Shown here: positions 3,330-25,034 of the stretch, piece by piece | Layout of the letters: the number at the start of each line of letters is the position of its first letter | How positions within the stretch are numbered: position 1 is the first letter of the stretch | Origin: Sarcophilus harrisii | Lineage: Eukaryota | DNA: 64,000 nucleotides | Direction: 5' to 3' | NCBI GenBank assembly: GCA_048593225.1 | Contig: CM109175.1 | Coordinates: forward strand, 261,543,655 to 261,607,654 | Notes under the pieces: model-generated | Databases searched by the model: none | What the model saw: the letters and a program-made list of their open reading frames with translations, nothing else | Told to the model about the DNA's origin: nothing | Position numbers and translations under genes: made by a program

Positions 3330-3985
3330 GAAGAAATATTTTTTTATGCATATATATTTATACAATTATTGTGGTGCACAAGAAAAACCAGATCAAATCA
3401 GTAAAAAAAGAAAGAAGAAGAAAATGCAAGCAAGCAACAACAAAAAGAGTAGAAATGCCATGTTGTGGTCCACACTCAGTTGTTCTCTTTCTGGGTGTGG
3501 GTGGCTCTCTTCATTACAAGATCATTGGAACTGGTTTGAATCACCTCATTGTAGACAAGAGCCATGTCCATCAGAGTTGATTATCATATTTTCTTATAGT
3601 TACCATGCATAATGATCTCCTGGTTCTGCTCATTTCACTTAGCATCAGTTCATGTAAGTCTTTCCAGATCTCTCAAAAATCATCCTGCTGGTCATTTCTT
3701 ATAGGACAATAATATTCTATAACATTCATATACCATAACTTATTCAGCCATTCCCCAACTAATGGGTATCCACTCAGTCTTCAGTTTCCAGCCACTACAA
3801 AGAGGGCTGCCACAAACATTTTTGCACATGTGGGTCCCTTTCCCTCCTTTAAGATCTCTTTGGGATATAAGCCCAATAGTAACACTCCTGGATCAAAGGG
3901 TTTGCACAGTTTTATAGCCCTCGGCATCAGTCCAGATTGTTCTCCAGAATGGCTGGATCCGTTCACAGTTCCATCAACAAGAGAA
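3330..3985 (-). mobile_element. L1 fragment (ORF2 C-terminus plus 3'UTR)
   Basis: Minus ORF 3781..3966 gives ...GLYPKEILKEGKGPTCAKMFVAALFVVAGN, a typical L1 ORF2 C-terminus. 3330..3610 matches L1 3'UTR copies at 16310..16580 and 54140..54300. Confidence 0.7.
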
Positions 3986-5724
3986 GAAATATTATATTCC
4001 TAGGCCAGAGAACTTTTACAATCATTGATGGACAGATTGCCAGAACAATAATACTCCAAGGTTGGGGGGGACTATCTCGGTATCACATATTCCAAAGCCA
4101 GACTTTAGAATCACTGACAGAATGTTAGAACAGAAGTACCCCAAAGTCAGTGGGACCTCCCTACTACTGTCTCCCCTAGAAGTTATATTCCTTCACATCC
4201 ACAATAATTTGTTATCTGAAGGAGACAGCACCAGCAAATGGAGGGAACAAGTGAGGTTTCCCATAAGAGATGATACCTGAGCTTGAAAGAAAGTATTCTA
4301 AGCTGAAGAGATGAGGTTAGAGGGCCTTCCAGAATGGTAGGTAAGGAAGGAGGGAGAAAAGTTTATGCAAAGACAAGAAGAGAGATAGAATGGTAAGTCC
4401 AGGGAACAGTTTAAGTAAGTTAAGTTTGACATTAAGGGGACTAATAATGCATGTGTAGGGAAAATAGATTGGAGCTAAATTATAGATAGTTTTAAATTCC
4501 AGAACAAATAATTTTATTTTATCCCAGAAGTAATAGGGAGCCACTGAAGATTTTTGAGCAGATGAATGGCATAGCCAGAGTAGTAGATTTCATAGAGGAT
4601 GTGGGTTCAAATCCTATCTCTGTCATTTATGACTATTGTGGTATTGTATTTAACATCTCTAGGGAACAGTTTTTTAAAGAGCTTTGATTTGGGAGTAATT
4701 TGTAGGTTATATATATGTTATGAAAAATAAAGGTGAAGGGTACTCATGTGTAACCTATATGATGTGGTCTTCAGTTTTTGTTTTTGTTTTTTTTTTTTAA
4801 ACATGTATAAAGATGACAAGAGAAATAAGAAAATAGATGAGGTCACCAAAGGAAAAGTTGTAGAAAGAGAAAAGCCCAGCTTCAAGCCTTAGGAAGCACC
4901 CATTCTTAGAGGGTAAGAAGTGAGATAATCTAGCAAAGAGAATGTGGGGGGATTTTTACAGGTAGGGCGACAATAAGAATAGCCAGCATTTATAATGTGC
5001 TTTACAAATATCTTATTTTGTTCTCCTAACAATTCTGAGAGATAGGTTCCATTATTAGCTGAGGATCCTCAGGTTAATTGATTTGCCCAGTCACACAGCT
5101 AGTTTAGTATCCAAGGCAGGATTTGTACTCATTTTCCTGATTCCCATCAAGTTTAGTGCTCTATCCAACCCTGAGGCTTAACTCCTGAAAATAGAGATAA
5201 GGAGGGCAAGGGAGAAGAGAATAACTAAGGATGAGATGATTTACAGGATCAAATTCAGAAGATCCATCAAGTGGGAAGGAAAATGAGTTTTAGACTTTGT
5301 AGTTAAGATCATTAGAGAGTTGTTTCAGAAGAGTGGCAAATTAGAAATCATATTGTGGATGAAAAATGAGTGGATAATGAGAAATTGAAGGCAATGAATA
5401 TGGATGACTTTTTTCCAAATTTGGATAATTAAAAAAACTATTTTTTTACAATTTTAAAAAGTAGTTACTATGATCTCCAAAGTAAGAAGAAGGGTTAGAA
5501 CTTGTTTCTCCTAAACTCTGGAAGTAGAGGTGTTCAGAAAATGCCTTTGTCTAGACATAGCAAAGGAAAGTACTCCAGGAAGAAAGGCAAATGGAAGGTT
5601 AAGGGAGGATCTGGAACTTTGTGGTCTTTGGATGTCCCCAGACATGGTTATTTAGTCATATTTTACCTCTAGCCTGAAGCAACATACTACTTCCAGGGTC
5701 AGTAGTGTTCTTAGAAAATTATTC

Positions 5725-6530
5725 ATAAAATGAACCAACCATTCTGGAGAGCAATTTGGAACTATGCCCAAAGGGCTATAAAACTGTACATACTCTTTGA
5801 TCCAGCAGTGTCTCTGCTGATTCTGTATCCTAAAGAGATCATAAAAGAGAGAAAAGGAGCCACATGTGCAAAAAAAATGTTTGTAGCAGCCCTTTTTGTA
5901 GTGTCGAGGAACTAAAAATTAAGTGAATGCCTCTTAGTTGAGGAATGGCTGAATAAGTTATGGCACATGAATGAAATGGCATATTATTTTTGCATAAGAA
6001 ATGAATAAGCAGGCTTATTTCAGAAAAGGCTGAAAAAACTTACATGAATTGATGCTGAGTAAAGGGAGCAGAATTGAAGACCTTTATACACAGTAATGAA
6101 AAGATTATGTGATGAACAACTATGACGACTTTGCTCTTCTCAGTAATGAGATGATTCAAGACAATTCCAATAGACTTGAGATGGGAAGAGCCATCTGCAT
6201 CCAGAGAGAAAAGTATGGAGACTAAATGTGGGATCGAAGCATAATGTTCTCACCTTTTTTGTTTTTTTCTTTCTTGTGGGTTTTTTCCTGTTTGGTCTGA
6301 TTTTTCTTGTACAACATCATAAATATGAACATATGTTTAAAAGAATTACGTATATTTAACTCATATCAGATTACTAGCTATCTTGGGGAGGGGGGAGACA
6401 GGAGGAGAGAGGAAGATAAGAGAGGGAGGGAGAAAAACTTGAAGCACAAAGTCTTACAAAAATGAATGTTTTGAAAATGTAAACTATCTTTATATGTATT
6501 TGGAAAAAAAATAAAATACTATTGCAAATT
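5725..6530 (+). mobile_element. L1 3' end (ORF2 C-terminus plus 3'UTR); tail partly duplicated at 6595..6670
   Basis: ORF 5730..5915 gives WRAIWNYAQRAIKLYILFDPAVSLLILYPKEIIKERKGATCAKKMFVAALFVV (L1 ORF2 end). Downstream matches L1 3'UTR (gatgctgagtaaagggagcag...ggggaggggggagac...). A second partial tail copy lies at 6595..6670. Confidence 0.7.
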
Positions 6531-6840: not shown

Positions 6841-7780
6841 TGTACTTTTGCTACTTTTCTTCCCTTCATTTGAGAACAGGACACAGGTGAAAGAGTGATT
6901 GGACTGGCTATTTGTCTACATTAAGCTCCCTTGTGTGAAATCATTTGATTCCTATCAAAGCTCTCAACCTACATTTGTGATACTTTGTTCCCTTTTTCAT
7001 TGTTTTTTCTTACTTTCCATTTATCCTTTTAATGGCTTTTTTGGATATAGATGTTTGAAGGCTAACTCCCAGTGAGATTGTAAGCTTCCTGAGAATGGGG
7101 ACTATCTTTTGCCTTTTTTCCTATGCACAATGCTTATTAAGTGTAACTGGCCAGTTGATCTGTCTTTAGGATCATAGATTTAGATCTGAAAGGGCTTTCA
7201 GAGACCCTAGTCCAACTCCCTTATTGTATAGATTAAAAAAAAAAAAAAACAACTGGAGGCTCAAAGTGATATTACTTGAATTACTTGTCTAATTCATACA
7301 GATAATGGTGTTATTAAAACCAAAATTTGAACCTCAGGTATGATTCCAGAGCCTGTGCTCTTTCAATTATAGCACACAATGCCTCCTTGATGCTTTTAAT
7401 ATCTTTGGGGTTGAGGATGAAGTGGAGAGGAGGAAGAAAAATTGCCAGTTAAGTCCAACATTTGACTCCATTCAATCCAGCTGCATTGAAACCCACCGTC
7501 TCATTTGGTGAACGGCCAAACGATTAATAGCTAGTAACTATCTTCCATGGCAGTAGAAGCTGTTGGTATTTGAAGATCATTATGAAGTTTTTCTTTAGTT
7601 TCCTTTTTTGCAGGTTGAATAAGACCCCAAGTCCTGGAACATTTTCCCCAAAAGTTCTGTCCTTTTCATTACTTTCTAGATCTTCTCTTTGTTTTCTCTT
7701 GCCCTCTGGCTAAAGCAGCAGCCTGGAGATTGTTGCTCTCTGAGCTTTGTGGGAGGAGCCAAAGATATTGGGAGTGGTTG

Positions 7781-7804
7781 AGTTTCAGTTTTGAAAACTT
7801 TGAG
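7781..7804. promoter_or_regulatory. ISRE-like element (reverse complement AAAACTGAAACT) upstream of PARP14-like gene
   Basis: agtttcagttttgaaaactttga; reverse complement matches ISRE GAAANNGAAACT at 11/12 positions. Confidence 0.3.
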
Positions 7805-7985
7805 ACGCTACAGGAGTAGAAATTTTGAAAAGGGCCTCAATCTTAGCTTTTTCTCCTCTGTTTTCTCCTCATCTTTCTCTATTCTTATTTTCATTTTGAA
7901 AATATTGAAGTTTGATAAACTCATACTATCTACATCTAAATATGCTTCTTAAAACCCACCTCCTGAAGTAAAATCATTGAGTTAG

Positions 7986-8008
7986 TTTTCAAGGAAATGA
8001 AACTGAAA
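7986..8008. promoter_or_regulatory. ISRE/IRF-E-like element (tandem GAAA half-sites, GAAACTGAAA core)
   Basis: agttttcaaggaaatgaaactgaaa contains TTTC plus three GAAA repeats with the canonical GAAACTGAAA spacing (compare ISG15/ISG54 ISREs). Sits ~700 bp upstream of the ATG at 8710 and ~175 bp upstream of a consensus donor at 8181|GTGAGT. Confidence 0.35.
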
Positions 8009-8709
8009 TTAGTCTTTTTCATTTTGGTTGCTGATTGTGGGAATGTCCCTATACTAAAGGAGAGAAGAGAGTTATTTAGCAGAATATCCTGGATGATCAG
8101 TAGGAGAGTTACAAGGAATATCTGTGCTGGGGAAAAGTGACTTTTGATAAGGAATGATGGAGACAGTATCACTTTTGCTAGGTGAGTGTGATATGTTTTG
8201 GTTTTTTAAAAATTTATATAAAAATGCTATGAACTTGGGTTTATTTTTTAAATCTGTTTTCCAGTTTAATGAATTTCTTTCAGTAAACTCAAAACCACTG
8301 AACCCCAAATCACAGAGCAATCTGAAGAATGATAAGATTATATGACAGAATATTCTCTACTTCTAGGGCTCTTCCTTCTTTTTTTTAAACTAATTTTTGT
8401 TCCCTTTTATTTTTGCAATCTCACTCCCAAACCTTAATTGATAGGGGACAATAGAGACTCACAGAAAGAGAGACATAAGCAAGGAAAGACAAAAATCAAA
8501 TTTTACCCTGGCCCAGCCCTGCTTTCAGAATGCAAGGTGGAAAATTCACATAGAGTATTCTCTCCCACAGGGATTGCTAATCATACTACAATATCAGGCT
8601 CTGATTATTTGTCTTATATGATGTTCTTTTCTGAATTTTTCCAGCAAGGCTGCAGAATCTGATAGGTGGTTTTCAATTTTGAAGTAGAAGCAAGAAGGTT
8701 GGATCAAAC

Positions 8710-9780
8710 ATGTCTGGATCTGTGACCAGCAATGGACCTCATTTAAGAACTTGCTGTAAAAGAGCTTCAGGTGATAAAGATCTAAAGGATCCCAGCTTCA
8801 GCCTGCAAACAGTCAAGCCCTGTTGTGGTCCTTTCATGAGAGTCTCAGGGAGACAGCCACGAAGCTTCTCAGTATGTAGCAGGAACAGTAAAGACTGGAA
8901 GATGCTGGATCACCTTCAGAGTTATCCAAGCACAAATGAAATTTTACATGTGACCCCTGAGGAGTTCCATTTATGGAAGGTCCTACAGGAAACTCTGGAT
9001 TTTTCTCTTTGGAAGGTGAAAGTTGGCTGGCAACTAGTTGAGAACTCAGCAATCATTTCCTTCTCTGGACCCCAGAAAGTGGTCTCTAATGCCAAGACTG
9101 CCATCAGTAAACTGATGATCCTTCTCAATTCCACTGTGAGAATGAATCCATGGCCTGGTTTGATTCAAGAGCAAAAAAAGATGAGTGGTTTCTTTCAAGT
9201 AGGAAATGGCCTTAGTCTTTATCTTTGGAAAGGAGAAGCTTCCACCTTCCGAGCCTCTGTCATCATGAGCCTCAGCAGTGGGCCACTGGACAGACAAAAT
9301 AAGGTCAAACCAGTCCCCAAAGTAAGGGTACAGAGGCAGCATATCCTGAATGATCGAGGTATTCCCCAGGTGTTGCTACAAGTGGTGCTATCATCCTCCT
9401 GGGCTGGCCATAGCTCAGGGAGGAAGCTTACTTCTAGGGATGAAAGCCAGGAGCTGACTGCCAGTGCTGTCACTTTGGCACTGCAAGCTGCGTCTCAGGA
9501 GAAAAGTGCTTCTTTGGTAATCCACCCCACAGGTCCAACAGCCCTCGCAAAGGGGATAACTCAGGGAGTCAAGGCCTTTAAGAACATGCAGCCCATGGGG
9601 AGCAGCCTGAAGAATCTGACAGTTGCAGTAACTGATGATGACTTTGTAGCCGAGTGGGAGGTGGAATGTTGCAGGTGGTGGCCCAGTGGAAAGAATCTCC
9701 GCGTCCTCCTTCCCTACGTCATGAGCTCCTGGGAAGCAGTAACAACTGAGGTAGTGTTTGGAAGCCTCTTCAGCCAGAAA
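8710..9780 (+). CDS. PARP14-like protein, coding exon 1 of 10 seen (KH-like repeat region); ATG at 8710 is a candidate start
   Basis: Long ORF; in-frame stop at 8680..8682 just upstream; Kozak aaacATGt. Ends at consensus donor AAA|GTAAGT (9781). Segment HLWKVLQETLDFSLWKV resembles PARP14 PLWKFLQKK KH-like region. Phase 0 end. Confidence 0.65.
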
Positions 9781-10297
9781 GTAAGTGGTCACTACTGAGT
9801 CTGGTTCTCCTTAGGTCAGTGGTACACATGCAGCCTTGGAAAGAATCCATGATTGATCAACAGAAATGATCAACTGGGTAATGAGATTCTAGGAAAAGTT
9901 AAGGAACATGGGATAAAGAGAAACTTGGAGAAAAACAATAACATTTCTTAAATATTCCAAGGGATTCAGAAGCCATAACAATTTATTGTCTATCCCCTTT
10001 GAGAATAGAACAAAACAAAATAGGTTAGACATGAGAGGGAACATCTAGTCAGTGAAGTCAATAAGAAATGGTACAGGTGACCAAGGAGTCCTATGAACTT
10101 TCTGTGAGAATTTGTTAAAACATGAAGGATCTCTGTTTGGGTTAAGGTAAAAGTAATGGAGGTTTTGGCAATCTCAAAGCTAAAGGAAAATGGTTTAGAA
10201 TTCTATTACCTGATGAAAACTTTTTTTTAGAGGATGTTTATCTTAATTTTCCTTATTTTCATTCTTCTTTCTTCCTGAACTTTTCTTTTATTCACAG

Positions 10298-10492
10298 ACA
10301 GATGTGGTTGTTTTCCCTTGGATTCTGGAGCCCCACAATAAAAGTTGGGTCCAGGAGACTACTACTCAGGTCCGTACAGCCCTGGAGACCATTCTTACTG
10401 CCCAGAATCTTGTCCATGGAAATATCATCACCATTCCTGCTTCCAGCTTGCCTGGTCTGCATTGCCAGATCCTATATATCATCTGCCTGGAT
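10298..10492 (+). CDS. PARP14-like protein, exon 2
   Basis: Acceptor ttttattcacag|ACA, donor GAT|GTGAGA. 195 nt, phase 0 to 0, in frame with exon 1 (TDVVVFPWILEPHNKSWVQETTTQVRTALETILTAQNLVHGNIITIPASSLPGLHCQILYIICLD). Confidence 0.6.
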
Positions 10493-11050
10493 GTGAGATT
10501 GGTTCAACAGTGCCTAGAAGTTAGCAAGGTTTGGCCTAATGTTTGAATATAAATGAATTAAAAGACATTTAATCAAACATTTACTATGTGTAAAACATTG
10601 TACTAAATGCTGGCTTTACAAGTAGAAAAAGAAGGACAGTTCTTGCTCTCAAAGAACTCACATTCTAATGGGGGAGACTATGTACTTTAGGGTACAGCAG
10701 CAAGGCAGAGGGTAATGCATTTTCTTTAATGTCATTTCAACTGATAAAATCATATCTGTTTCTGATGCTTACTTATTTTATAATGCCAAAGGCTTTGGAG
10801 GTGAAAACTTTCTTCTTGAAATCTTTAGTACTTGTGGGTATTGAGACCAGGCTGTAGTAACTGTAAAAGCAGTTGCCAAATTGCATCTCCATAGAGTTGT
10901 TCTCTGGCACGATGGCTATAGAGATTGGGCTAAAAGCAAGAGCATGGTGTTGTCTGTGCTGCCTTTACTGAGGCTTTTAGGTTTTTCTGTTAGTGGAAGT
11001 TGGTGGCAATTATGAGGAAGATGAATCTTTTCAATAGTGATTGCTTCTTT

Positions 11051-11415
11051 CTTTCTTTTTTTTTTTTTTAATAGCCTTTTATTTACAGGATATATGCATG
11101 GGTAACTTTACAGCATTAACAATTGCCAAACCTCTTGTTCCAATTTTTCACCTCTTACCCCCCCCACCCCCTCCCCTAGATGGCAGGATGACCAGTAGAT
11201 GTTAAATATATTAAAATATAAATTAGATACACAATAAGTATACATGACCAAAACGTTATTTTGCTGTACAAAAAGAATCAGACTCTGAAATATTGTACAA
11301 TTAGCTTGTGAAGGAAATCAAAAATGCAGGTGTGCATAAATATAGGGATTGGGAATTCAATGTAATGGTTTTTAGTCATCTCCCAGAGTTCTTTTTCTGG
11401 GCATAGCTGGTTCAG
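11051..11415 (-). mobile_element. 5'-truncated L1 3' end flanked by 18-bp target-site duplication (tagtgattgcttctttct)
   Basis: Poly-T 11054..11070, then the shared L1 3'UTR unit. TSD copies at ~11033..11050 and ~11416..11433. Confidence 0.75.
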
Positions 11416-11974
11416 TAGTGATTGCTTCTTTCTATGGTGATTATGGAACCTGAATGGGAAACAGGACCAGTGGTCTGGGGGGTACTGCTATTCTGAAAGC
11501 TTTGGGGTTTAAGTCAGGGGTTATTTACTTCAGGGTGTGGGGGAAGGAGTAGGGATTGACTGGCCTGGCACATGCCAACTCTTGTCTTTTACTCAGGGTG
11601 TTTTACTACTTTAGCTAGGCTGATGTACTCATTCTATAGGTGCTGGTTATTTGACGGTTGATGGGGAAGACTCGGCCCTTCTCCAATAGAGTTGTTTTCC
11701 TATGGGTAGAAATAATGGTTGAGATTGGGCTGGAAGTAGGATCAATAGACTAGGTGGCACTTCTTTATGTCATATACTGTGTATAAATTGATCTTTATCA
11801 GGTCAATATCACATTCCCACTTTAAGACCCTTTGAGATGAAGGTAGTGAGTGTTGAGTTATGATTTCTCTTTACCTTATCTACCTTCTTATGGAGACAGG
11901 CTATACATATTTGTAATTATACTTGCATTATAATTACATTTATAATTATTTTAATTACTGTGATTGTTACTCAG

Positions 11975-12193
11975 CAGGTCATTCAGCAGGTGGTCTGGAG
12001 CTGCTTGGACAATTTCCTTGGCTCTTTTCTGGAATCCATCTCCTTTCCTATCTTAGACCTGGAGACTACTGGGAATTCTAATTCTTTGTGTATTATGTTG
12101 GAAGAGATCAATAACTTTTTAAAACAAAAACCCAACACATGGATGAAACTAGTACAGATAATTCAACCCCTACAAGCAGCCACTCCTCAGAAG
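11975..12193 (+). CDS. PARP14-like protein, exon 3 (KH-like repeat)
   Basis: Acceptor ttgttactcag|CAG, donor AAG|GTAAAG. 219 nt, phase 0 to 0. QVIQQVVWSCL...ILDLETTGNSNS parallels PARP14 FLQQVNWKEF...LYELEGTTVLLTS. Confidence 0.6.
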
Positions 12194-13189
12194 GTAAAGT
12201 TTTAGTAAATCCATCATCAGCCATCATGGACAGAGATACCTTAGACCAAAATTTCTTACACTGGGTTGTGACCCCATATGGGATTGTATAACTGAATGTG
12301 GGAGTCACAAAATTATTATTTATTATCACTAAATGTTGGATTTGTACACCTATTTTATATACCTACATACTCTCAGCTGTGTAAAATTTTCCTGAGCAAA
12401 ACAGGGTTGCAAGTAGAAAAAGTTTTAAGAAATCCTATCTTAGACAAAAGTACAAATCTTCCCACTTGCCTTCTTAGCTCTTGTATGCTTCTGATACCAC
12501 TGCTGCTCTGATCCTCAGCTGCTTATTGCCAGGAGCTCCAGCATTAAATTGCTTTACTCTAGGTTTTGACCCTAAATTGGGCCCCTCATTCCAAAGTTAT
12601 TCTTCCTATCTATGCTATCAAACTTTCATTTCCCCAAAGGCAACTGCCTTCATTTAGCTTGCTAGAGTGATTCAATCTGATAAATTAAATTCACACTGAA
12701 GTGAGAATCACTGATTCCTAGATTAATGTATTTGTACTTTAATAGAAAAATTAATTAATTTGAATTAATAGATCTCTAATGGAAGAATCTAAGCAAGATA
12801 TTTTGGGGACAGATGGTTTTCTTCTCTCAAATGACAGTAGATTGCTGGTTGGAGGTGAGCCAGAGACAGCTGAGGGTTTAAACAGATGTCTTCTCCCACA
12901 GAAACAATAATAAAGTGAAAGTCAATGACATTACATGAATAGTTTTGACACCTGTTCAGATTATTGATTTGTAATTACAGATCAAATGCTCAGATACTCT
13001 ATGAGACTAAATAGGTTGTTCTTTAAAGATAAAATATTAACACAGCCAAATCCAGAGACTCTTAGACCTTTTTAGAAAAGATGTACAAAATTGCAGTGCT
13101 TCAGTATTTATAAACAATAGTCTTTTTGGTGTGTACTTGATCTTGGTTTATTTTAAATATATCAGATTTCTTCCATCTTTTCCTTTCAG

Positions 13190-13217
13190 ATGACTGAATA
13201 TTTTAGGACCCCTCTTG
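13190..13217 (+). CDS. PARP14-like protein, 28-nt micro-exon 4 (MTEYFRTPL + 1 nt)
   Basis: Strong acceptor ccatcttttcctttcag|, perfect donor |GTAAGT. Only one frame is open. Its phase-1 end joins exon 5 exactly (g + aa = GAA Glu). Confidence 0.45.
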
Positions 13218-14314
13218 GTAAGTACACTGTCTGGGAATATCATAGAGTTGATATTATTCAGCTTTCCAGAGAATTCAAGCATCTTCTCATTCACAAACAT
13301 TTCTGTTCTTCAAAATTTCATCTAATCTGTTTATCAATATAGTCATTCATATCCTACTTCCTCACACTTTCAAGGGCACAAGTCTAAAGGACACATAAAT
13401 CTGTGTAGGTAAATAGGTAGAGATACTTATGCAGTTATGATATACTTAATGAATTACTTCCCACTCCTACCCTTATTCCAGGCTAATCAGTAAGGTAATA
13501 TATAAAAGAGATATAATGAATTCAAATTGTTTAAATTAACTCTCTGCTTGATGTGCTATTTAATAATGGACAGTATTGAAGTTATTATTGACTCTATACT
13601 GCTTGACCCTGGTGTTTTTTTTTTTTTTTCAGATATCTTAGAATCTCAGTCCTAAGAAAATTATAGCAATACTTATCATATGTTATAATTAACATATGCT
13701 ATCCACCTCCTGAACATAAAATTCTAAGGGAGAGGAAAAAGAAGTATAATACCCTCCTGTTCTTAGGGAGTTTGCAATTTGATTGAGATGGCAAGATTAC
13801 CATAATACAGTGGTACAGTATATAAGAATTATATATGCCTATCCTCCACTGAGATCTTCTGATACTTGAGTTCTCAAAGGCTGTGATAGTGAAACATAAA
13901 CACTAGTAGATCTTCCTAACCTGAAAGGGCTCAGGGACCCAATGTGTGCCATTACTATAGAAACCAACCTTACTAGTGAGCCTATCATTGAACTGATGGC
14001 AGAGTGTTGATTTTTGTGACTAAAGTCTCTTAAAATGATGATTTTTGTGATTGAAGTCTCTTAAGAACACTCTTCCAAAATGATGGTGAGGATATGATCT
14101 GTGCTGATGGAGGTATTGATGAAACTGATAAAATTATTTAATGGCATGTGAGTGTAGATATATGTGTCATGAGAGAGAAGAGACAAAAAGAGAGACAGAG
14201 ACACAGACACACACAGAGAAAAGAGAATATTATAAACATATATAAGCATCATAAACATTTATATTTACACCCAAACTTCTATTGTCAAAGATAAATTTTC
14301 TATGTGGGGGGAGG

Positions 14315-14480
14315 AAGGGGGAGCCTGGCCAACTAAATTGAGAGCTGACCTTAGGTCCAGGAAGACCTGCATTCAAGTCCCACTGCTGACACATACTGAT
14401 TGTAATCTTGGTCAAATCATTTATCTTCTGAATCCTCTAAGCAACTTCTAAGAGATTAAATTGCAGAAAAGGTGATCACT
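14315..14480 (+). mobile_element. tRNA-derived SINE fragment (MIR/MAR-like)
   Basis: ...gacctgcattcaagtcccactgctgacacatactgattgtaatcttggtcaaatcatttatcttctgaatcctctaagc resembles the MIR/MAR body (gacctgggttcaaatc...ctgtgtgaccttgggcaagtcacttaacc). Confidence 0.35.
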
Positions 14481-16159
14481 AGCATTGATAAAGATATCAA
14501 TCTGGGCATATATCCTTTTCTGCTGAAATCACAGATCCAAGGAAAAAAGAAATGTTTGTTAAATGGAAACAACATTGAATAAAAAAAAGAAAAAGGAAGA
14601 ATCATAGATCTAGTCCTTGTTTATATATAATATACATATATATATACATATAAAAATGTATATATAGCTAAATACCTGCATATATTTATTAACATATAAT
14701 AAATATATACAATATGAAACTAAATTCTAAGGGTATGGTATAGATCAGGGGTAGGGAATGCTTGGCCCGCCTGATTTCAAAGATTGCTAAATCATTTTGC
14801 TAAGGCAACCATAAGCAATAATGAGCTAAAAGCTAGGTACAACAATCTCCAACTGCTTGAGTTCTATAAATTGATCATTTTGTATAGCCCATGAATAATG
14901 TTATAAATATCCAAATTGCCCTTGGCAGAAAAAAAGATTCCCCCCCAGTATAGATAATAAGGACTGTTCAGAGAAGAGAGACTATTGGAGCTTGAATGGA
15001 AGAGATGAGATTTGATCTGAATCTTGATAGGGTAGTGTTTGAGCAAGCAAGGAAATAAATGGAGGATAAGACATTTTAAGGTAACAGAGTGCTGTAGATA
15101 AAGGGCCCTGGCTTTTGTATGACAGGGAAATGCGCTTGATGATAAAGGAGGTTTCATGTTGGGAATTAATGGGGAAAAAAAACGTTGAATAGGTAGAGTA
15201 GGGCTAGAAAATGGGGAGCTTTAAAAAGTTTGTAGGTATATTTGGCCCAGTTACAAAAATACAGATTTGCCATTAACAAAGAGGTAGTTATGGAAGACAA
15301 TGGTAATAGATGAGTGATAAGAGGAAAGATGTATTTAAAAAGAATAACACAAGACTGGGTGGAACCTTGAGGAAAGCCCTTATTTAGGGTTCATAGTAAG
15401 GAAGAAGTATGAGCAAAGGAGAGAGGGAGAGAGAAGTAACACATTAACGTAGAGGGCCAGTATTGAATAAATCCATATATAAGAATGGACTTATTCAATA
15501 TTGGCCCTCTACAGATTAATACAAACAAGAGGAGATTCAGGAGAGTAGAGTCCCATGGAAACCAAGAGTACCCAACAGTATGAAAGAGAAGGGGGGGGAA
15601 TCCATAGGATCATAAACTTTTGAGGTGCAAGAGACTTCAAGAGGTCATCAAGTCCAATCAGCTCAATTAAATAAAAAGAAAAAAGAATACATAATTAATA
15701 ATAATAGTAGCTAACTTTATATAGCACTTTAAAGCTTTATACAGTACTTTATAAAACATTTTTAAAGTAATTTACCATACTACTTAATCTTCACAAGGAC
15801 TCTAATGAATAGGGAAGGGAATATATATTTATAAAATATGTACTATGTGCAAGGCAGTCTGCTAAGTGCTTTACAAATGTTATTTCATTTTAGATGAGAT
15901 AATATTAAGAGCTATATTATCCCTATTTTGCAAATAAATACAATGAGACTGAGAAAAGTTAAGCAATTTGCTCAGGACCACTCAGCTAGTGGGTATGTGA
16001 AGCAGTATTTGAATAAAGTTAATAAATAATAATGGTTCTAAATCTAGCACTATCATCCATGCCACCTAGTTTTATAATTAAAACTTCACAGAACTATCTA
16101 CAACATGCTTTTTTAAATCTTAATATTTAGTTTTTTATTTAATTTTTAAAATTAAAATT

Positions 16160-18180
16160 AAAATTTTTTTAAATAAAGCTTTTTATTTTCAGAACACATG
16201 CATAGATAATTTCAATATTCACTCTTGCCAAACTTTGTGTTCCAAAACTTTTTTTTCTTTCTTTCCTCTACCTGGCAAGTAGACCAAAATAGATGGCAAG
16301 TAATCCAAAATATATTAAACATGTGCAATTCTTCTATACAAATTTCCACAATTATGCTGCACAAGAAAAATCAGATTAAAAAGGAAAAATGAGAAAGAAA
16401 ACAAAATGCAAGCAAACAACAACAAAAAAAAATATGAAAATACTGTGTTGTGATCCCCAATCAGCCCCACAGTCCTCTCTCTGGGTGCAGATGGCTCTTT
16501 CTTCATCACAAGACCATTGGAACAGGCCTGAGTCACCTTGCTGTTGAAAAGAACCACGTCCATCAGAATTGATTATCATATAATCTTGTTGTTGCTGTGT
16601 ATAATGTTCTCTTGGTTCTACTCACTTAGCATCAATTCATGTAAGTCTCTCCAGACTTTTTTGAAATCCTCCTGATCATTTCTTACAGAACAATAATACT
16701 CCATAACATTCATATACCATAACTTATTCAGCCATTCTCCAACTGAGGGGCATCCACTCAGTTTCCAGTTTCTTGCCACTATAAAAAATTCATGTAAGTC
16801 TTTTCAGGCTTTTTTGAAATCAGTTTGCTGATAGTTTCTTATAGAACAATAATACTTTATTACATTCATATAACTTATTCAGTCTTTCCCCACTGATGGG
16901 CATCTACTCAGTTTCTAGTTTCTTGTCACCACAAAAAGGGTTGCTTCAAACATTTTTGCACATGTGGATCCTTTTTCTTTTTTTATGATCTCTTTGGAAT
17001 ACAGACCCAGTAGAGACTCTGATGGATCAAAGGATCTACACAATTTGGTAATCCTTTGGGCATAGTTTCAAATTGCTCTTTAGAATAATTGGATCAGTTC
17101 TCAACTCCACCAACAATGTATCAGTGTCTCAGTTTTCCCACATCCCCTCCAACATTCATCATTATTTTTTCCTATCATCTTAGCCAATCTGAGAGGTGTG
17201 TAATAGTACCTTAGAATTGCCTTGATTTGCATTTCTCTGACCAGTAGTGATTTAGAATACTTTTTCATATGACTAGAAATTGTTTTAATTTCTTCATCTG
17301 AAAATTATTCATATTCTTTGACCATTTATCAATTGGAGAATGGCTTGTATTATTTTAAATTTGAGTCAGTTCTCGATATATTTTAGAAATGAGGTCTTTA
17401 ATAGAATCCTTGGATGTAAAATTTTTTCCCCAATTTACTGTTTCCCTTCTAATCTTGTCTGCATTGTTTTTACAGACTTTTTTTTTAACTTAATATAATT
17501 AAAATTATCTGTTTTGCAGTCCATAATGTATTCTGGTTCTATTTTCCCACAAATTTCTTCCTTCTCCACAGATATAAGAGGTAGATTATCCTTTGTTTTT
17601 CTAATTTGTTTATAGTATCACTCTTTATGTCTAAGTCATAAACCCATTTCGACCATATCTTGGTATATGGTGTTAAATGAAGGTCAATGCCTAGTTTCTG
17701 CCATATTAGTTTTCAATTTTCTCAGCAATTTTTGTGAAATAGTGAACTCTTATCCCAGAAGCTGGGGATTTGGGATTTATCAAAGGCTAGATTACTATAG
17801 TCATTGAATATTGTGTCTTGTGAGCCTAACCTATTCCACTTATTGACTGTTCTATTAGCCAGTACCAAATGGTTTTGATGATTGTTACTTTATAATATAG
17901 TTTTAGATCTGGTACAGCTAGGCCACCTTCATTTGCGTTTTTTTCTATTAATTCCCTTGAAATTCCTGAACTTTTGTTCTTCTAGATGAACTTTGTTACT
18001 ATGTTTTCCTAGATCTGTAAAATAATTTCTTGGGAGTTTGATTGGTATGGCACTAAATAAGTAGATTAATTTAAGTAGTATGGTCATTTTTATCATATTA
18101 GCTAGCCCACCATAAGCACTTGATGTTCTTCTAGTTGATTAGATCTGACTATTTGTGCTATCCACAAAATACTATAAATA
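16160..18180 (-). mobile_element. L1 fragment (~2 kb: 3'UTR plus ORF2 C-terminal half) in intron of PARP14-like gene; internal tandem duplication ~16700..16900
   Basis: 16310..16580 is L1 3'UTR. 16580..18180 is the reverse complement of L1 ORF2 (ccactataaaaa..ttgcacatgtggatcc; FAHVDP... motifs). Two near-identical ~100-bp tandem blocks lie at 16690..16790 and 16800..16910. Confidence 0.75.
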
Positions 18181-18247
18181 AGCTTGACAACTGAGAAAAG
18201 ATTTTTAATTTAGACTTGTTGGTCAACTCTCTTGTCTTTTCTTCTAG

Positions 18248-19632
18248 AAGCCATTGGTCTCTGTTGGAAGGAGGACCTTGCTTTCATCCAGTATCTTAAT
18301 GACTCCCCAGATGTTTTCCAAGAGTTTGAAGATGATTTAAAGAAAGTAGGCTGTGTTTTCCAAACTTGTTACCCTTTGGGAGTGCTTCAGTTTGTAGCAG
18401 AAGGAGAACACTTAGATCCATCTAATTGGGAGAAAGCTGTGGAGAATGCTTTTCAGAAAAACAAGAAGAGATATGCTATTCACTATGAGTCCAATACAGA
18501 TATTCTAAATATTCTGAAGAAGCAACAATCTCTAGTGAAGTCTTTTAAAAGTATACAAGAATACAAAGGCCCTTGCTTTGTAGGGCTAACTGAAGAAGTG
18601 AAGATGTTTGTACAACATATTCAGGAAATGGCTTTCAGTGAAAAGCCAGTGTGTGTGGAACATCCCATTCTCCATCTTCCTAGATTTACAGTAGTCAAAA
18701 ACATGATAACCAAGTTCCTCTTTCCTCACTCTCCAGTGACTATAGCCTTGGCAGAAGATCCTTTAGGTATGATCACTTTTCAGGGGCCCCAAAAGGATGT
18801 GCTTGAGGTGGAAAGGCAGTTTTATAGTCTGTTTAGTGCTTTTAAGAACTGGCCAGTCTCGCTCTCCACATTCCAAATACATTTTATCCAGGGCCTCCAG
18901 GAAGAACTCTTTAATGAGAATTTTTTCCTTTCTCAAGATATTTCGGCAGTGCTTAACACTTCTGATGGAATTAATATTTGGGGGCTTGATTTTGGAGAAT
19001 TGGTACAAGCAGAAGAATTATTGAAAAGCCTGGTTTATGAGAGGAAGATTGATATCGGGGAAGAGGTCCAGTGGGCAACCAGTGGCCTGGAATGGGAAAC
19101 TCTACTCATAGCACTAAGAAATCCAAAGAGAGTTAATTTTTATAGTGTCAAATCACAGCTAGGTATTTTGACTTCGGTGGTCATAGTGGGCACCAGGATT
19201 GAAGTAGCTGAGGCAGAAATGAATATTAGGGAATATTTGATGAGTTATTCAATAACTGAAGACAGAATTATTTCTCCTCGACTGGAGCTAGCTGAAGCCA
19301 GAGAAAACCTGTTTCGGATAATGAACTGGGGGGACTTAAAGGTGAATATTTGCATTCAAATCAACCATTCTACTTTAACTTTGAAACTAAAAGGACTAAG
19401 GAAGCATGTAAAAGAGGCCAGAGGAATTGTTCAAGCAGATCTAGATTCATTAACTATGAGAAGCATCCCCATAAGGCACAGAGGAGTACAACAATACCTT
19501 TTGGGAATTGGAGCTACAGTTCTTTTCACATTTGCTGAAGAACTCCAATGTTTGGTGAAGATGCAAGTGACAGAGAAAACCACAAATACTTTGCTCTCTG
19601 AGGTCTCAGCTTATAGGAAGGAGAATGAATTG
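18248..19632 (+). CDS. PARP14-like protein, exon 5 (large, 1385 nt; KH-like repeats)
   Basis: Acceptor cttgtcttttcttctag|, donor TTG|GTAAGA. 473-aa ORF. RVNFYSVKSQLGILTSVVIVGTRIEVAEAEMNIREYL parallels PARP14 KVNVQVSFNPENKQKGILLTGSKTEVLKAVDIVKQVW. Terminal ...YRKENEL parallels PARP14 IELQENEV, the segment immediately preceding macrodomain 1 in PARP14. Confidence 0.75.
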
Positions 19633-21775
19633 GTAAGAGTCATCAATTCTTGATAAAATTTCAGAACTGAAAGGGAACTTGAGTCTTTTTTCATCCTCTA
19701 TTCTAAGCCTAGAAAAATGGTTCTTCTATTTTTAGAGGACTTTAAAGTAGGTACCCAGTCTTGCTTATGCTCCTTTGGGGGTTTACTCATTTATTAAATA
19801 TTTATTAAGTGTATAGTATATGTAATAATGCACTAAAATTAGAGAGTATTCAAATTTGGTCCTTTTCTTCAAGGAGTATAAACTCCTTGATAAATCTAAT
19901 AAGATATATTCTTGTATAGGCATTTATCAGTGATATTGCAAGTTCAGTTCCAGACCACTGCAACAAAGTAGATATTGCAATAATGCGAAGTTACTTGGAT
20001 TTTTTCCCCTGTGCATATAAAAGTTATATTTATACAGTAGTCTACTCTACTAAATATACAATAGTATTATGTCCTTACTTTTAAAATATTTTATTACCAA
20101 AAATATGCAAACCCTTATCTGGGCCTTCAGTGGGTCATAATCTTTTTGCTGGTAGGGTCTTGTTTCTGTATTGATGGCTAATGATTGATCAGCTGAAGGC
20201 TATGATGACTATGATGAGTGGCAGTTTCTTAAAATAAGACAACAATGAAATTTGTCACATCTATTGACTATTCTCCCTTTAACCCTCAGAGAGCATTATT
20301 GGGTTATTAATTGACTTAATTTCAAAACTGTCATGTCTCAAGCAATAGGGCAGTCCAAAGAGAGGGAGAAACAGGGAACAGTCAGTTGATGGAGATGTCA
20401 GAATATAGGCATTTATTGGGCAAGTTCCACTGTCTTACAAGGGCATGGTTTGTGGCACCTCAGAACAATATAGTTAGTAACATAAAAGATCACAGAGCAC
20501 CATAAAAATATGATAATGATGAAAAAGTTTGAAACATTGTGAGAATTACCAAAGTGTGAGAGAGACATGATGTGAACCCCTGCTGTTAGAAAAATGGTGC
20601 CTCTTGAATTTCAAGGTTACCATAGTGAAAAATGCAATATCTGTGAAACACAATAAAAGGAAGCACAATTAGACAAGTTATGACTATACAAATTTTATTT
20701 TTTATATTTCATATTCTTTATAAAATATGTATATATTATTTATATTTATATTACAGAAATGCTGATATAGGGACAGCTACGTGGCTCAGATGATTCCTAA
20801 AGTTTCTTTTACCTCTAAGATTCTATGACCAAGTCATACATTATATCAGAATGTTCTGGATTTTAAGCTCTTGTCCCACTTGATGACATACTAAGAAATA
20901 ACCCTAGCTGACCCATTTCATCTCTCATTGGCTTTTAAAATTCTCCCTTTTTCCCTTTTCTCATTTGTGCTTACCATATCTACCATAGATAATTTTGTTT
21001 CCTCTCTACCCCCTTGATTTTATTTTCTTGTTTTATTGCTATAGCTAGCATTTCTACTTCTATATCAAATAAGAGTAAAAACACTGGACATTTTTGTCTT
21101 ACCAGTAATCTTATTGTGAAATATTCTAGTATTTCTCCAATTACGTCTTAAGTAGATTTAACCATGATTATTGATAGTTTATAAACCAATTAGATAGATG
21201 GTGCCCTGAGCTTCGGTTTTAGTTCTGGTTCCAGGACAAGTGAAATAGTCAGGGGCCACCAACCCTCTCTAAAATTATGCAAGTTGATTTGGAATGACAT
21301 AGTAGTTAGGATGAATAATGTTTTTAAAATGTTAAGTAGACTAGGGAATCAGGACTCTACAAATAAACTAATCTGGGGTAAATAGAAACTAGCTACCTCT
21401 AAACACACTAATTATCACCAAATAAGGATAAACACAGGGATTAGTAGCATTGAAGGGTTGCCCTTAATGGATTCATCAGTAATTCAATCAGTAATTGTGA
21501 GTCCTTTTCTACATTCCCTCTGGGGAATCCTAAACTAGACAGGGTGATTGGTGAAATATCAGTGTTCTGTTCAAGGCCTTCCCCGGGATTTCTTCATCTT
21601 TTAGTCCAATTATCTTTTTGTTTTTGTGTTTGTTAAATGAGAAATGGAAGAATAATTTATAAGTTTCTGAACTTTAGGATCTTATAGAGGAATCAAAAGA
21701 AAGATTTCTGAGTCTTCTGGGAATGTCGTGTTTTCTAATACATTTAGTAGGTTTCTTACTCTTTCTTTTTATTAG

Positions 21776-21836
21776 ACATCTGTCCAAGAACTCCTGAAGT
21801 TTCTCAGAAGATACAGAAAAGAACACTTTGCTCTTG
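21776..21836 (+). CDS. PARP14-like protein, exon 6 (TSVQELLKFLRRYRKEHFAL)
   Basis: Acceptor ctttctttttattag|, donor CTTG|GTAAGA. 61 nt, phase 0 to 1; completes Gly codon with exon 7. Resembles PARP14 AISWLQDLIEKEQ (post-macrodomain linker). Confidence 0.55.
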
Positions 21837-22454
21837 GTAAGAATGAGAAGATACTGTCCTATTCCCTGGAATCCCTATTAGTTTTCTTTCATCTCCAGAT
21901 GTGTAAGAATTTGGGGACATTATTCCATTTGGAGATATTTGTACTACAGGTAGAAACATTCTCTTCCCAGTTACTGACAAAATGACCAGGGAGACACAAA
22001 GCAGTAACCTAAAGATAATGCAGTGTATGGTTACTAAGCATTTTCAGAGCAATGGTACACATTATCTCTTGAAGACTGCTCTGTGTCTTCTCTTAATGTT
22101 GAACTTGTCGAGGGGACCAATATGTAGGAAAAGGAGAAAGGAGAGAAGGAAGATGGCTGTTATTAGTTGGCTAAGCTATTAGTCAGCATCCAGCTAAAAG
22201 CACTTAGTACAGTGCTTTTATAAATATTATTTAATTTGATTCTAACAACAACTTTGGAAAGTAAGTACTATTACCTGCATTTTACAGTTGAGGAAACTGA
22301 GATAAAACGAGTTGTCCAGGGTGACACATTCATTAAGTATATAAAGTTGGATTTGGATTCTGACTTTTCTTACATCAGGCCCTAAACTATATCTGTTGTA
22401 TCAACAGCTACTTAAACCATTCTTCTAAACATATTAAGTATGTTAAGTAAGTAT

Positions 22455-22615
22455 CACAAATGTTTAACCTATATTGGATTACTTGCTGTCTAAGGGAAGG
22501 GGATGGGGAGGGAGAGAGAAAAATTTGGAACACAAGGTTTTGCAAGGGTGATTGTTGAAAATTATCTTTGCATGTATTTTGACAAATAAAAAGCTATTAT
22601 TAAAAAAATTAAAAT
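22455..22615 (+). mobile_element. L1 3'UTR tail fragment
   Basis: tattggattacttgctgtctaagggaaggggatggggagggagagagaaaaatttggaacacaaggttttgcaagggtgattgttgaaaattatctttgcatgtattttgacaaataaaaagctattattaaaaaaa matches the L1 3' ends at 32760..32880 and 54360..54420. Confidence 0.6.
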
Positions 22616-23211
22616 AAACCACTGAGATTGGTGAAAAGAAAGAGAAAGTAGCAGTTTCCTCTAAATTAAACCACATTTTTTTTTTTTTTTACTATAAGTT
22701 AGATGTGTAAAGTACCTTAGAGGTTATATAATTCAACTCCCTCTTCTCCAGCCTATTCCTAGGTTCCTTAAGTATGTGGAAATTTATGTATATAATGATT
22801 TTGTATATAAAAATTTATGTATGTAATAAGTTTCTGAATAAGTGGAAATTTGATCTTGCAATCTTAAAATTAAAAACAAATTTCTAATTTTGTCAACCTT
22901 CCACAGTTATATACATATATTTATATATAAACCTAAGCCCTTTGCTAGAATTCTAGTATAATTGATTATTTTCTTGGTATTAATTAAATTAGAAAATAGT
23001 TATTTCTCATTTTCTTTATGCTTCAGAAACTGAGGGCAATTTGTTCAGCCTTTTTCAGACTGAGTAATTTCAATTCTTTTGAGCTTTTCTCATACATTCT
23101 ATTATTTTAGCCTTTCATAGGCAGTATGACATCAGAATGGATCAGATTTTCCTTCATTTTCAAAAATTGAGGGTATTTGACTCATTATGAATTTCTTCTC
23201 TTTGTTTTCAG

Positions 23212-23739
23212 GTGACTCTCCACTAGGACTGGTTCAAGTATTGGGTAAGGAGATGAATTTAGTCAAATTTCAGGAAGCTTTTGAAGACTTTATGAATGGA
23301 TATTGCAGTGAAACATTTGACAGTGATAAAATAGTCACTTTCAGCCAAGACTGTCTTCAAAAGGTCTTAAGCCAAGGGTACTATTTCCCACTCAATCTGC
23401 ATCATCGTGGGAGTCTCTTACAGATCCAAGGTTTTCAGGAAGATGTGAAGAAAGCTGCTATTGTTGTACAAACTTTAATCCAGGAAGCTCATGACATAGA
23501 TAGAGCAGCAGAAGCCCTGAAATCTGTGGTTCAATGGCAATATGACATTGGTAACACAGGTCTTTCCCCATTTGATAAAACTACAAATCTAAAACTGGAA
23601 GCAGCATATAGGAAGGAAGAAGAGAACATTGAAATCATCTTGAATTCTAGAAAAGCCAAGGTCAACTTGAAGAAGAGGGAAGGTTTGGTACTAGACATGG
23701 GGACAATTTTTAAAATAAAGCGGGAAATCTGCATATGGG
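23212..23739 (+). CDS. PARP14-like protein, exon 7 (contains WWE domain)
   Basis: Acceptor tctttgttttcag|, donor TGGG|GTGAGT. ...ALKSVVQWQYDIGNTGLSPFDKTTNLKLEAAYRKEEENIEIILNSRKAKVNLKKREGLVLDMGTIFKIKRE matches PARP14 WWE (FIEWQYNDNNTSHCFNKMTNLKLEDARREKKKTVDVKINHRHYTVNL). Confidence 0.8.
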
Positions 23740-25034
23740 GTGAGTTTTTTTTTTCCTTTAATTTTCATTTCTCAATTAATCAGGTTTACTTGGCTTTGTC
23801 CCTTTCTTTAAGCTCTCATTTCTTCCCAGATTCATCCTTAATGAATAAGAATGAGAGAGGTGGTCATTCTGGAAGATATTTATCTATGTTAGAAAATTGG
23901 AAAATTAAAAGTAGTAGTTGTTAACCTTGTCCTGCACTAATTTTTCAATGGGATTCTTTAGCCAATTTCATACTTGCTTATAATGAGAAAAATATAAACA
24001 TTTGAAGTTCATTGATAATCCAAAAGGTACTTTAGTTAATTATTCTAATGTCTTATTTTATTTATACTAATACATTGTATTTGAATACTTTCCCTCAAAC
24101 ATCTAGAGAACAGCAAATCCAGAACATTCTCTGAAACTTTAAGCAAAAATGTAACTAATCACACCATAGGTTTCTACATTTGTAGTTTACCAATTGCTAA
24201 TAGAAAGACTATGCTAATAATTTTACCTTTTCCTCCCATTTAATTTTTTATCAGAATTTTTAACAAGAGATAAACACAGATATCTAATGTTTTTTTCACT
24301 TCCTCTTTACCAGTAATTAGTTAGATGGGCTAAAAAAGAAACAATTAAAAGGATTCTCTTGCCTTTAAAGAATTTAGAAATAAATGTGGACACTCAATTC
24401 AACAAACAGTAAGTGCTTACTATATACAGGGCCATAGAAAGCCACTTCCAGATAACAGACTGCTTTCCAAATTCAGATGGAATAAAACTGTTTAAAGTAA
24501 AAAGAGAAGCAGATGAATATTTTGAAGGCAAGTGTGATGATAAAGCCATTCTACATTTATTTCATTGCCTTCTTGAACACAGGAATACATAACTCCAGTA
24601 ACAAAACAATCTCTCCTTGAATTGGAAGCAAAATAGCAGCTGACCATTTCTAGATAATTCTCAATATTTAATTCAACAAATTAGGTACCTAATATGTGTA
24701 GAATGCAGTGCTGGAGGAAATGCAATTAGCATATTCAATAGGGAAATGCAATATATGCACATATATGTATACTAAAATGAACTAGTAAGAAAGATTAAGC
24801 TCTGATAATGTGGTTAGATTGCTATGGTTGCACTAGTCCAAAACACTTGAGTAATTGATGTTCTCTGTCTTCTCAGATATTAGTGATTTTAAACTATGGT
24901 AGGCAATTCATATTTCCTGAAAAGGTAACTTTTATTTCTAAACGATACCTCCTTTTTGGCTTGCTTCCTCTTTCCTGTTGAGTCCCTTCCCCCCCACCCA
25001 AACAAAACAATTTTGCCATACTTTAGTCTTGGAT

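Follow-up and report, generated by a model that had tools for sequence, protein, structure and literature searches.

A putative interferon-responsive promoter with a composite GAS/ISRE module 5' of a PARP14-like gene of the Tasmanian devil

Composite interferon-stimulated genes carry an interferon-stimulated response element (ISRE) and a gamma-activated site (GAS) close together; PARP14, DTX3L and PARP9 are included in this class (PMC10287828; Sekrecka et al. 2023). In human PARP14, the GAS directly adjoins the ISRE, and the site binds pSTAT1, pSTAT2, IRF9 and IRF1. It was validated by chromatin immunoprecipitation (ChIP) and reporter mutagenesis and responds to both interferon types via ISRE and GAS (PMC10287828). 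IRF1 binds composite genes basally in human cells (PMC10287828). The DNA described here is a 64-kb stretch of Sarcophilus harrisii, the Tasmanian devil (contig CM109175.1 of assembly GCA_048593225.1, positions 261,543,655 to 261,607,654 of the forward strand; the window refers to this whole stretch of 64,000 nt). It contains a PARP14-like gene whose start codon is at 8710-8712, preceded by a fused GAS/ISRE site. Positions 7781-8181 probably correspond to an interferon/IRF-responsive promoter and a short non-coding first exon of this marsupial gene. By analogy with the human PARP14 promoter, this would most likely be an ordinary interferon-inducible promoter.

The motifs at the site are given below, sorted from the composite module to the distal element. 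Glider refers to Petaurus breviceps (sugar glider; locus L001), the one species used for the conservation check, whose divergence from the devil is modest.

7986-8009, plus strand: complete composite GAS/ISRE module TTTTCAAGGAAATGAAACTGAAAT; no other perfectly conserved non-coding run in the 1.6-kb alignment of devil and glider is as long.
7988-7996, plus strand: GAS-like element TTCAAGGAA (consensus TTCNNNGAA; opposite strand TTCCTTGAA, with one optimal TTCC half-site).
7993-8010, plus strand: three GAAA repeats GGAAATGAAACTGAAATT, containing GGAAATGAAA and GAAACTGAAATT.
7993-8008: GAAA-repeat element GGAAATGAAACTGAAA / ggaaatgaaactgaaa, read from the sequence.
7781-7793: ISRE-like element AGTTTCAGTTTTG / agtttcagttttg, read from the sequence.

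The composite site reads TTTTCAAGGAAATGAAACTGAAATT. The GAA of the GAS also opens a series of three GAAA repeats, with spacers of 1 then 2 nt (GGAAA-T-GAAA-CT-GAAA). The composite class is defined by an ISRE-type core (TTTCNNTTTC) near a GAS (TTCNNNGAA); here TTCAAGGAA overlaps GGAAATGAAACTGAAA, which holds GAAACTGAAA, and the linker is 0 nt. TTCAAGGAA is the only GAS match in the 2.5 kb upstream of the ATG, and its core is the same as that of the GBP3 GAS (Table S4, PMC10287828). GAAACTGAAATT is an ISRE/IRF-E core (IRF-E, IRF-binding element) that reads AATTTCAGTTTCA on the minus strand. A strong conserved splice donor follows the site at 170-190 bp, and the ATG at 700-720 bp.

The human PARP14 sequence (AGTTTTCCAGGAAACGAAAGCGAAAGAGTC / GGAGTTTTCCAGGAAACGAAAGCGAAAGAGTCAAAG) was rebuilt from the mutagenesis primers of PMC10287828. 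The devil sequence (AGTTTTCAAGGAAATGAAACTGAAATTAGTC / TAGTTTTCAAGGAAATGAAACTGAAATTAGTC) equals it at 25 of 32 bases, with the same spacing and with the flanks AGTTTTC and AGTC included. The human site is likewise built of a GAS TTCNNNGAA and three GAAA repeats with spacers of 1 and 2 nt, the GAA(A) of the GAS being part of the first repeat. In both, read along the strand of the primer named _F (conventionally the sense strand), the GAS precedes the repeats; their apparent orientation is the same. Both sites lie 5' of a PARP14-family gene. They differ in their cores and setting: TTCCAGGAA and GAAAGCGAAAG, both optimal, in a GC-rich promoter in human, TTCAAGGAA and GAAACTGAAATT in AT-rich DNA in the devil. 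The two genes are paralogues at different loci, not orthologues, and function is proven for the human site only.

Two scans locate this resemblance at the module. When the human PARP14 63-mer was run over both strands of the whole window, the best local alignment fell at 7984-8014 with a score of 17.5, above all 60 shuffles (maximum 16.5); its best match in the glider locus is the orthologous site. The grammar TTCNNNGAAA-N-GAAA-NN-GAAA (TTCNNNGAAANGAAANNGAAA) was derived from the human PARP14 site and is hence independent of the devil window. With at most one mismatch allowed, it has 1 match in the window (0.01 expected), and it is also present at the orthologous glider position (L001 9324-9344).

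An interferon-response element 5' of a PARP14-family gene is, by itself, what a specialist would expect. Only the near-identical layout shared with a validated human site, in a distant paralogue at a different locus, goes beyond the ordinary. It is possible, although rather doubtful, that the fused GAS-GAAA-GAAA-GAAA cassette was inherited from the common ancestor of PARP14 and its PARP14-like paralogue. A cis-regulatory grammar of ~30 bp (spacing, orientation, flanks) would then have survived duplication, relocation to the TEP1-CCNB1IP1 neighbourhood and >300 million years. Alternatively, the layout could have arisen twice, by convergence. The case is small and clean for comparing inherited with re-invented promoter grammar across ancient paralogues.

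A first-pass annotation had placed two ISRE/IRF-E-like elements at 7781 and 7993 and a donor at 8181|8182, with the features 530-930 bp upstream of the candidate start codon. All these coordinates were reproduced by reading the sequence of 7000-9600; the features lie 529-929 bp 5' of ATG 8710. Both elements are present, but neither is a perfect ISRE, and the one at 7993 is better described as a fused GAS / Ets-IRF / ISRE module. The exact canonical ISRE, (A/G)NGAAANNGAAACT, is matched neither by 7999-8010 (GAAACTGAAATT), nor by 7993-8004 (GGAAATGAAACT), nor by the minus strand of 7781-7793 (CAAAACTGAAACT), with one mismatch apiece; human ISREs with ChIP support and departures of similar degree exist. 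The canonical form of 7999-8010 would end in ACT; 7781-7793 is AGTTTCNNTTTC except for a final C replaced by T (one-mismatch ISRE). Like the canonical ISRE (the site of ISGF3, GGAAANNGAAACT) and the IRF-E/PRDI type (PRDI, positive regulatory domain I), the devil site has tandem GAAA half-sites with 2-nt spacing: 7999-8008 reads TTTCAGTTTC on its minus strand, and both devil elements contain TGAAACT. It differs from them in having no exact GAAANNGAAACT, each devil site departing once from the 12-mer consensus. The sole exact GAAANNGAAACT of the window is inside an L1 at 33908.

Two weaker conserved IRF-type sites lie 100 and 205 bp 5' of the composite module.

7781-7794, minus strand: distal ISRE-like element AGTTTCAGTTTTGA; its minus strand is TCAAAACTGAAACT, in which the 3' half (TGAAACT) is perfect and the 5' half (AAAA) degenerate.
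7889-7903: third conserved block TTTCATTTTGAAAAT, IRF-half-site-like, a 15-nt perfect run shared with the glider and absent from the list of the first-pass annotation.

The distal element AGTTTCAGTTTTG equals the human PARP9/DTX3L ISRE AGTTTCAGTTTCG at 12 of 13 positions. Several ChIP-supported human ISREs have T at the same position as the distal element (Table S4 of PMC10287828). The human PARP9/DTX3L promoter is bidirectional, has its GAS 17 nt from the ISRE and serves macro-PARP-related, interferon-induced genes of the composite class. In the devil, by contrast, no GAS adjoins the distal element, its second core shows a C-to-T change, and the nearest divergent gene, TEP1, is ~9-10 kb off. 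Fully conserved TTTCNNTTT/AAANNGAAA sites amount to 3 of 6 in 7386-8694 (background, 9.1%); TTTCATTTT at 7889 is the third of these conserved half-site pairs.

Single motifs are not rarer than chance in this AT-rich window. Over its whole length, GAAANNGAAAYT is seen 2 times (1.36 expected), GAAANNGAAA 16 times (8.1 expected), AGGTGAGT 3 times (2.0 expected) and AGTTTCNNTTTY 5 times (1.4 expected). The GAS consensus TTCNNNGAA is seen 22 times and expected 31 times, without overall enrichment. Two things are above chance: the composite pattern of GAS and GAAA repeats, and the splice donor 8181|8182.

The glider locus aligns continuously with 7084-10000 of the window, and nothing is aligned further 5'. 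Non-coding identity is 78% in 7386-8709. A short interspersed element (SINE) shared by both species (74% identity) was taken as a rough neutral yardstick. This MIR-like / marsupial SINE, at 7084-7385, occupies the orthologous glider position L001 8403-8700 and so predates the devil/glider split. As evidence, the conservation of the whole region was rejected: its 78% compares with 74% in the SINE, which has a 23-nt perfect run. The motifs themselves stand above this background in the one comparison species. The composite module is within a 24-nt perfect run (7986-8009, 24/24; bases 7993-8009 identical) and the distal element within a 14-nt perfect run (7781-7794, 14/14). In 7386-8694, only 4 of 1289 21-mers (0.3%) are fully conserved, and all four overlap the composite site. 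Fully conserved 16-mers make up 0.85% in the region (9 of the 11 overlap the GAAA-repeat site) and 13-mers 2.4%. Conservation in related marsupials was the check proposed by the first-pass annotation, and in the glider both of its motifs are perfectly conserved within a region of 78% identity. The motifs were fixed before the comparison, so their conservation counts as moderate support, not proof.

It is improbable that the motifs are chance matches in AT-rich DNA, devoid of function and conserved only by the short distance between the two marsupials. Such an origin would agree with the counts of single motifs, which are not enriched, and with the single comparison species. It would also agree with the perfect runs of 17-23 nt found in the shared SINE and with the ~0.9 runs of at least 24 nt expected under a uniform 78% model. 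It sits badly with a composite grammar expected 0.01 times, and with a best window match to the human PARP14 site that falls exactly at the module and beats 60/60 shuffles. The conservation of both pre-specified motifs (joint empirical probability roughly 0.003 x 0.024), the conservation of 3/6 IRF-half-site pairs against a 9% background and the position of the module just 5' of a gene from an interferon-stimulated family also argue against chance.

The features assigned to the 5' end of the transcript are given below. The assignment of the exon is a prediction.

8182-8187, plus strand: consensus 5' splice site GTGAGT, after TAG (AG|GTGAGT).
8011-8181, plus strand: putative non-coding exon 1, its start predicted somewhere in 8011-8140.
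8182-8644, plus strand: putative intron 1, its 3' end uncertain.

Donor 8181|8182 scores 10.7, all other GTs in 7990-8709 score at most 4.2, and it is among the top 8 of the 3116 plus-strand GT sites of the window. In the affine-gap alignment, devil GT 8182-8183 aligns with the glider GT of TGG|GTATGT. Directly 5' of the donor, the devil stretch ~8140-8180 is absent in the glider (41 nt by affine-gap alignment, 37 nt by MAFFT). An indel whose length is not a multiple of 3, beside a conserved GT, fits a non-coding exon. Within the putative exon, 8040-8139 is a conserved block (identity 0.84-0.86 over 8065-8139). The strongest pyrimidine tract precedes the candidate acceptor TTTTTCCAG|C (CAG) at 8644; conserved alternative acceptors are TCTCCCACAG|G at 8570 and ATATCAG|G at 8597. 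For the short 5' non-coding exon suggested in the first-pass annotation, the donor is strong, with its GT conserved beside a 37-41-nt indel, and the implied acceptor at 8644 is not conserved.

Three further observations concern this exon. The devil-specific stretch 8140-8180 is bounded by a repeated word (CACTTTTG / GACTTTTG). Two upstream ATGs, at 8154 and 8157, are inside this stretch, and splicing 8181/8645 would make from them a 22-codon upstream open reading frame (ORF) ending at TGA 8680. The sequence GGGAATGTCCC at 8039-8049, between the composite site and the conserved block, is near-palindromic and NF-kappaB-like; it is deleted or diverged in the glider and is thus probably not a conserved element.

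It is rather unlikely that the module is a genuine interferon/IRF element acting as an upstream enhancer, with the core promoter and start in 8440-8700, GTGAGT 8182 unused and no exon 1. The stretch 8500-8700, adjoining the ATG, is the best-conserved non-coding one (0.84-0.92), at least as conserved as the motif region, and might be the real core promoter. The glider donor is only moderate (5.6-6.5), weaker than that of the devil, and the strongest acceptor, CAG 8644, is CAA in the glider; AGGTGAGT alone is expected ~2 times per window by chance. On the other side, the donor GT keeps its position in the glider, and 7990-8709 holds no other strong donor. Because the conserved acceptors 8570 and 8597 exist, the conservation of 8570-8710 fits an exon of the 5' untranslated region (UTR) equally well; 8500-8700 as a whole is compatible with such an exon or with a proximal core promoter. 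Three glider RefSeq accessions for the same isoform X1 protein may hint at alternative untranslated exons.

Like the weaker glider donor, the lost acceptor and the conservation next to the ATG, several other points weigh against an interferon-responsive promoter with a non-coding first exon. The GAS TTCAAGGAA has a single optimal half-site, and both ISRE-like motifs depart from a perfect GAAANNGAAACT. The short distance between devil and glider precludes strong footprinting: the presumably neutral SINE has a long perfect run of its own, and about one run as long as that of the module is expected by chance. No clear TATA box or initiator element was found. The snake orthologue is without ISRE or GAS in the 2.5 kb before its coding start. 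A literature search found no usable marsupial or devil interferon transcriptome data on this gene or on PARP genes.

The snake locus (Crotalus tigris, L002) was also considered further upstream. At 1610-1760, 4.25 kb before the coding start, it has an IRF-E-like sequence AGAAAGTGAAAGAG / GAAAGTGAAAG, with a consensus donor AAAAG|GTGAGT ~110 nt downstream; the layout is similar to that of the marsupials and is taken as a weak post-hoc lead that could be due to chance (~0.05). A 15-nt similarity between the snake and devil exon 1 (GCAGAAT..CTGGATGA) was rejected, 70 of 500 shuffles scoring equally well.

The module can also be compared with the Ets-IRF composite element (EICE, GGAANNGAAA; bound by PU.1-IRF4/8). 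GGAAATGAAA at 7993-8002 is an exact, conserved fit to this consensus; with 8 occurrences of the 10-mer in the window, it is too common to be distinctive by itself. A mainly constitutive Ets-IRF (PU.1-IRF8/IRF4) or IRF1/IRF2 site, giving basal expression in immune cells rather than induction by ISGF3/STAT1, is a decidedly improbable account of the module. This exact fit, ISRE cores lacking the canonical ...GAAACT at correct spacing, the suboptimal GAS half-site and the basal IRF1 binding of composite genes in human cells would suit it. The frequency of GGAANNGAAA in the window tells against it, and so does the human PARP14 site, which has the same overlap (GGAAACGAAA) yet answers both interferon types. 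Constitutive use is moreover compatible with an interferon response; the two are not mutually exclusive.

The first-pass annotation had named coding exons further upstream, such as exons encoding RNA recognition motifs (RRMs), as the finding that would speak against a promoter here. They were looked for and none was found 5' of ATG 8710. Devil, opossum and glider protein models all start with MSGS... at this ATG. An in-frame TGA precedes it.

8680-8682, plus strand: in-frame TGA, 30 nt 5' of the start codon.

With this stop in place, the coding frame cannot extend in phase through an acceptor located before 8680. A tblastn search with residues 1-150 of the relatives from lizard, snake and caecilian gave no match 5' of 8710. 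The DNA 5' of the gene is mostly composed of L1 fragments (3480-6200), which are not alignable to the glider locus, and of the MIR-like SINE (7084-7385).

This repeat-rich intergenic DNA would be in keeping with an element derived from a transposable element, e.g. a long terminal repeat (LTR) with interferon-responsive sites. Another role would be the regulation of the divergent TEP1, whose coding start in the glider is 9.7 kb upstream on the opposite strand. Either origin or role is most improbable: no second copy of 7386-8700 is found in the window or in the compared loci, the block is orthologous in two marsupial orders, and the element is ~0.7 kb from the PARP14-like ATG versus roughly 9 kb from TEP1.

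The interferon-responsive promoter first proposed for 7781-8181 is thus retained as probable, while its element and its gene have to be described anew. It rests on the sequences and their rarity, on motif conservation, on a grammar matching that of the validated human site and on the lack of upstream coding sequence; the computational predictions that were put to a check all favoured it. Factor binding, transcription start, intron usage and interferon inducibility are predicted as follows. By analogy with human PARP14, interferon gamma (IFN-gamma) would bring STAT1 homodimers to the GAS and IRF1 to the GAAA repeats. Type I interferon would bring ISGF3 (STAT1-STAT2-IRF9) to the GAAACTGAAA core. 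In myeloid and B cells, PU.1-IRF8 or PU.1-IRF4 could also bind at the GGAANNGAAA overlap, and the weaker ISRE-like sites at 7781 and 7889 may add IRF/ISGF3 binding sites. Transcription would start within ~150 bp 3' of the module. The non-coding exon would end at donor 8181|8182 and be spliced to an acceptor at 8570-8644 (exon 2 from 8571-8645), and translation would proceed from ATG 8710.

If correct, this reading adds a marsupial gene to the range of the composite GAS+ISRE interferon switch, which until now has been characterised in human cells. It would make an unnamed PARP14-like ADP-ribosyltransferase, apparently absent from placentals, a probable interferon-stimulated antiviral gene. Tasmanian devil immunology, in which the IFN-gamma responses of facial-tumour cells are intensively studied, would be offered one gene and one 24-bp site as concrete candidates.

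The gene spans 8710 to a TGA ending at 27976 on the plus strand. Its coding exons are the following; those after the first were mapped by tblastn, splice junctions were read from the sequence, and domains were assigned by Pfam and PDB matches.

8710-9780, plus strand: first coding exon, starting MSGSVTSNGPH; KH-like plus degenerate macro-like region.
10295-10531, plus strand: small coding exon.
11996-12196, plus strand: small coding exon.
18244-19629, plus strand: KH-like coding exon, 1.4 kb.
~21692-21844, plus strand: coding exon, found by tblastn.
23211-23738, plus strand: WWE coding exon, with Pfam/PDB matches.
26149-26285, plus strand: catalytic-domain exon.
26988-27159, plus strand: catalytic-domain exon.
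27705-27976, plus strand: catalytic-domain exon (PARP catalytic domain, stop TGA).

ATG 8710 opens a 362-codon ORF. Coding exon 1 is 99-99.7% identical to Sarcophilus harrisii A0A7N4UZA8, 75% to Petaurus XP_068953802 and 69% to Monodelphis A0A5F8HDU9, in all cases from residue 1. The last was recovered through a C-terminal search. An exhaustive search with coding exon 1 gave twelve relatives (devil, glider, lizard, rattlesnake, turtle, caecilian), and word-indexed protein searches with the KH exon and coding exon 1 gave nothing. The relatives in these search results are all from marsupials, squamates, turtles or a caecilian; no eutherian orthologue is among them. Petaurus XP_068953799-803 carry the name 'uncharacterized protein' in RefSeq.

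Pfam domains of the PARP14 type are present (PARP, WWE_1 and KH_PARP14_4/6/8, the KH matches being weak). In PDB, the catalytic part has matches to human PARP15 and PARP14 (E about 1e-18) and the WWE exon to the WWE domain of PARP14. Identity to eutherian PARP14 over the WWE and catalytic region is only 32-36%. By Pfam, neither the devil exons nor the 1366-aa Petaurus orthologue gave an RRM or Macro match. Of the marks of PARP14, no N-terminal RRM and no macrodomain is recognisable, and neither orthology with PARP14 nor synteny with the PARP9-DTX3L-PARP15-PARP14 cluster is seen. The upstream neighbour is TEP1 (in the glider, L001 1-286, with its coding start ~9.7 kb away; PARP14-like gene, 10001-29431). 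The downstream neighbour is the CCNB1IP1/SNORD126/SNORA79 host gene, with a CCNB1IP1 coding exon from 63829. The absence of RRM and Macro matches, the low identity and the TEP1-CCNB1IP1 setting indicate a PARP14-like paralogue, not PARP14. The earlier assignment therefore stands as to the PARP, WWE and KH domains, and the gene is a distinct paralogue between TEP1 and CCNB1IP1. In human, this neighbourhood presumably holds PARP2/RPPH1.

Three features of the protein were observed in passing. The 1365/1366-aa Petaurus RefSeq isoforms include the KH-like exon 18244-19629; the UniProt models of devil (708 aa) and opossum (877 aa) pass over it and are thus probably incomplete, unless the exon is alternatively spliced. 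The region 8710-12196 has the look of macrodomain remnants (...SASLVIHPTGP..., ...ISFPILD...) with no Pfam Macro and no PDB match, and its macrodomains therefore seem to be degenerate. Of the catalytic positions, H, Y and L look intact.

Elsewhere in the window, two SNORD126 and one SNORA79 are found at 52281-52357, 57102-57178 and 59437-59582 (plus strand), well above Rfam thresholds. Consensus donors on the same strand are at 49283, 50510, 50624, 56871 and 59049; together, these fit snoRNA-hosting 5' non-coding exons and introns of CCNB1IP1. The region 62050-62700 (plus strand) is CpG-rich (44% GC, many CG dinucleotides) and is followed by the exon 63829-64000 encoding MSICEDMLLCNYRKCRIRLSGYAWVTACSHIFCDQHGSGEFSRSPAVCPACNSTLSG, which is taken here to be the start of CCNB1IP1 (HEI10). 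A GAS-like TTCACGGAA is at 62075. Direct repeats at 42169-42445 and 47353-47610 (86-89% identical, ~5.2 kb apart) flank an ORF (46240-46632) with a Pfam rve integrase core; 42169-47610 is probably an endogenous retrovirus with two LTRs. A copy of GAAACTGAAA is found inside this putative retrovirus at 43402, minus strand.

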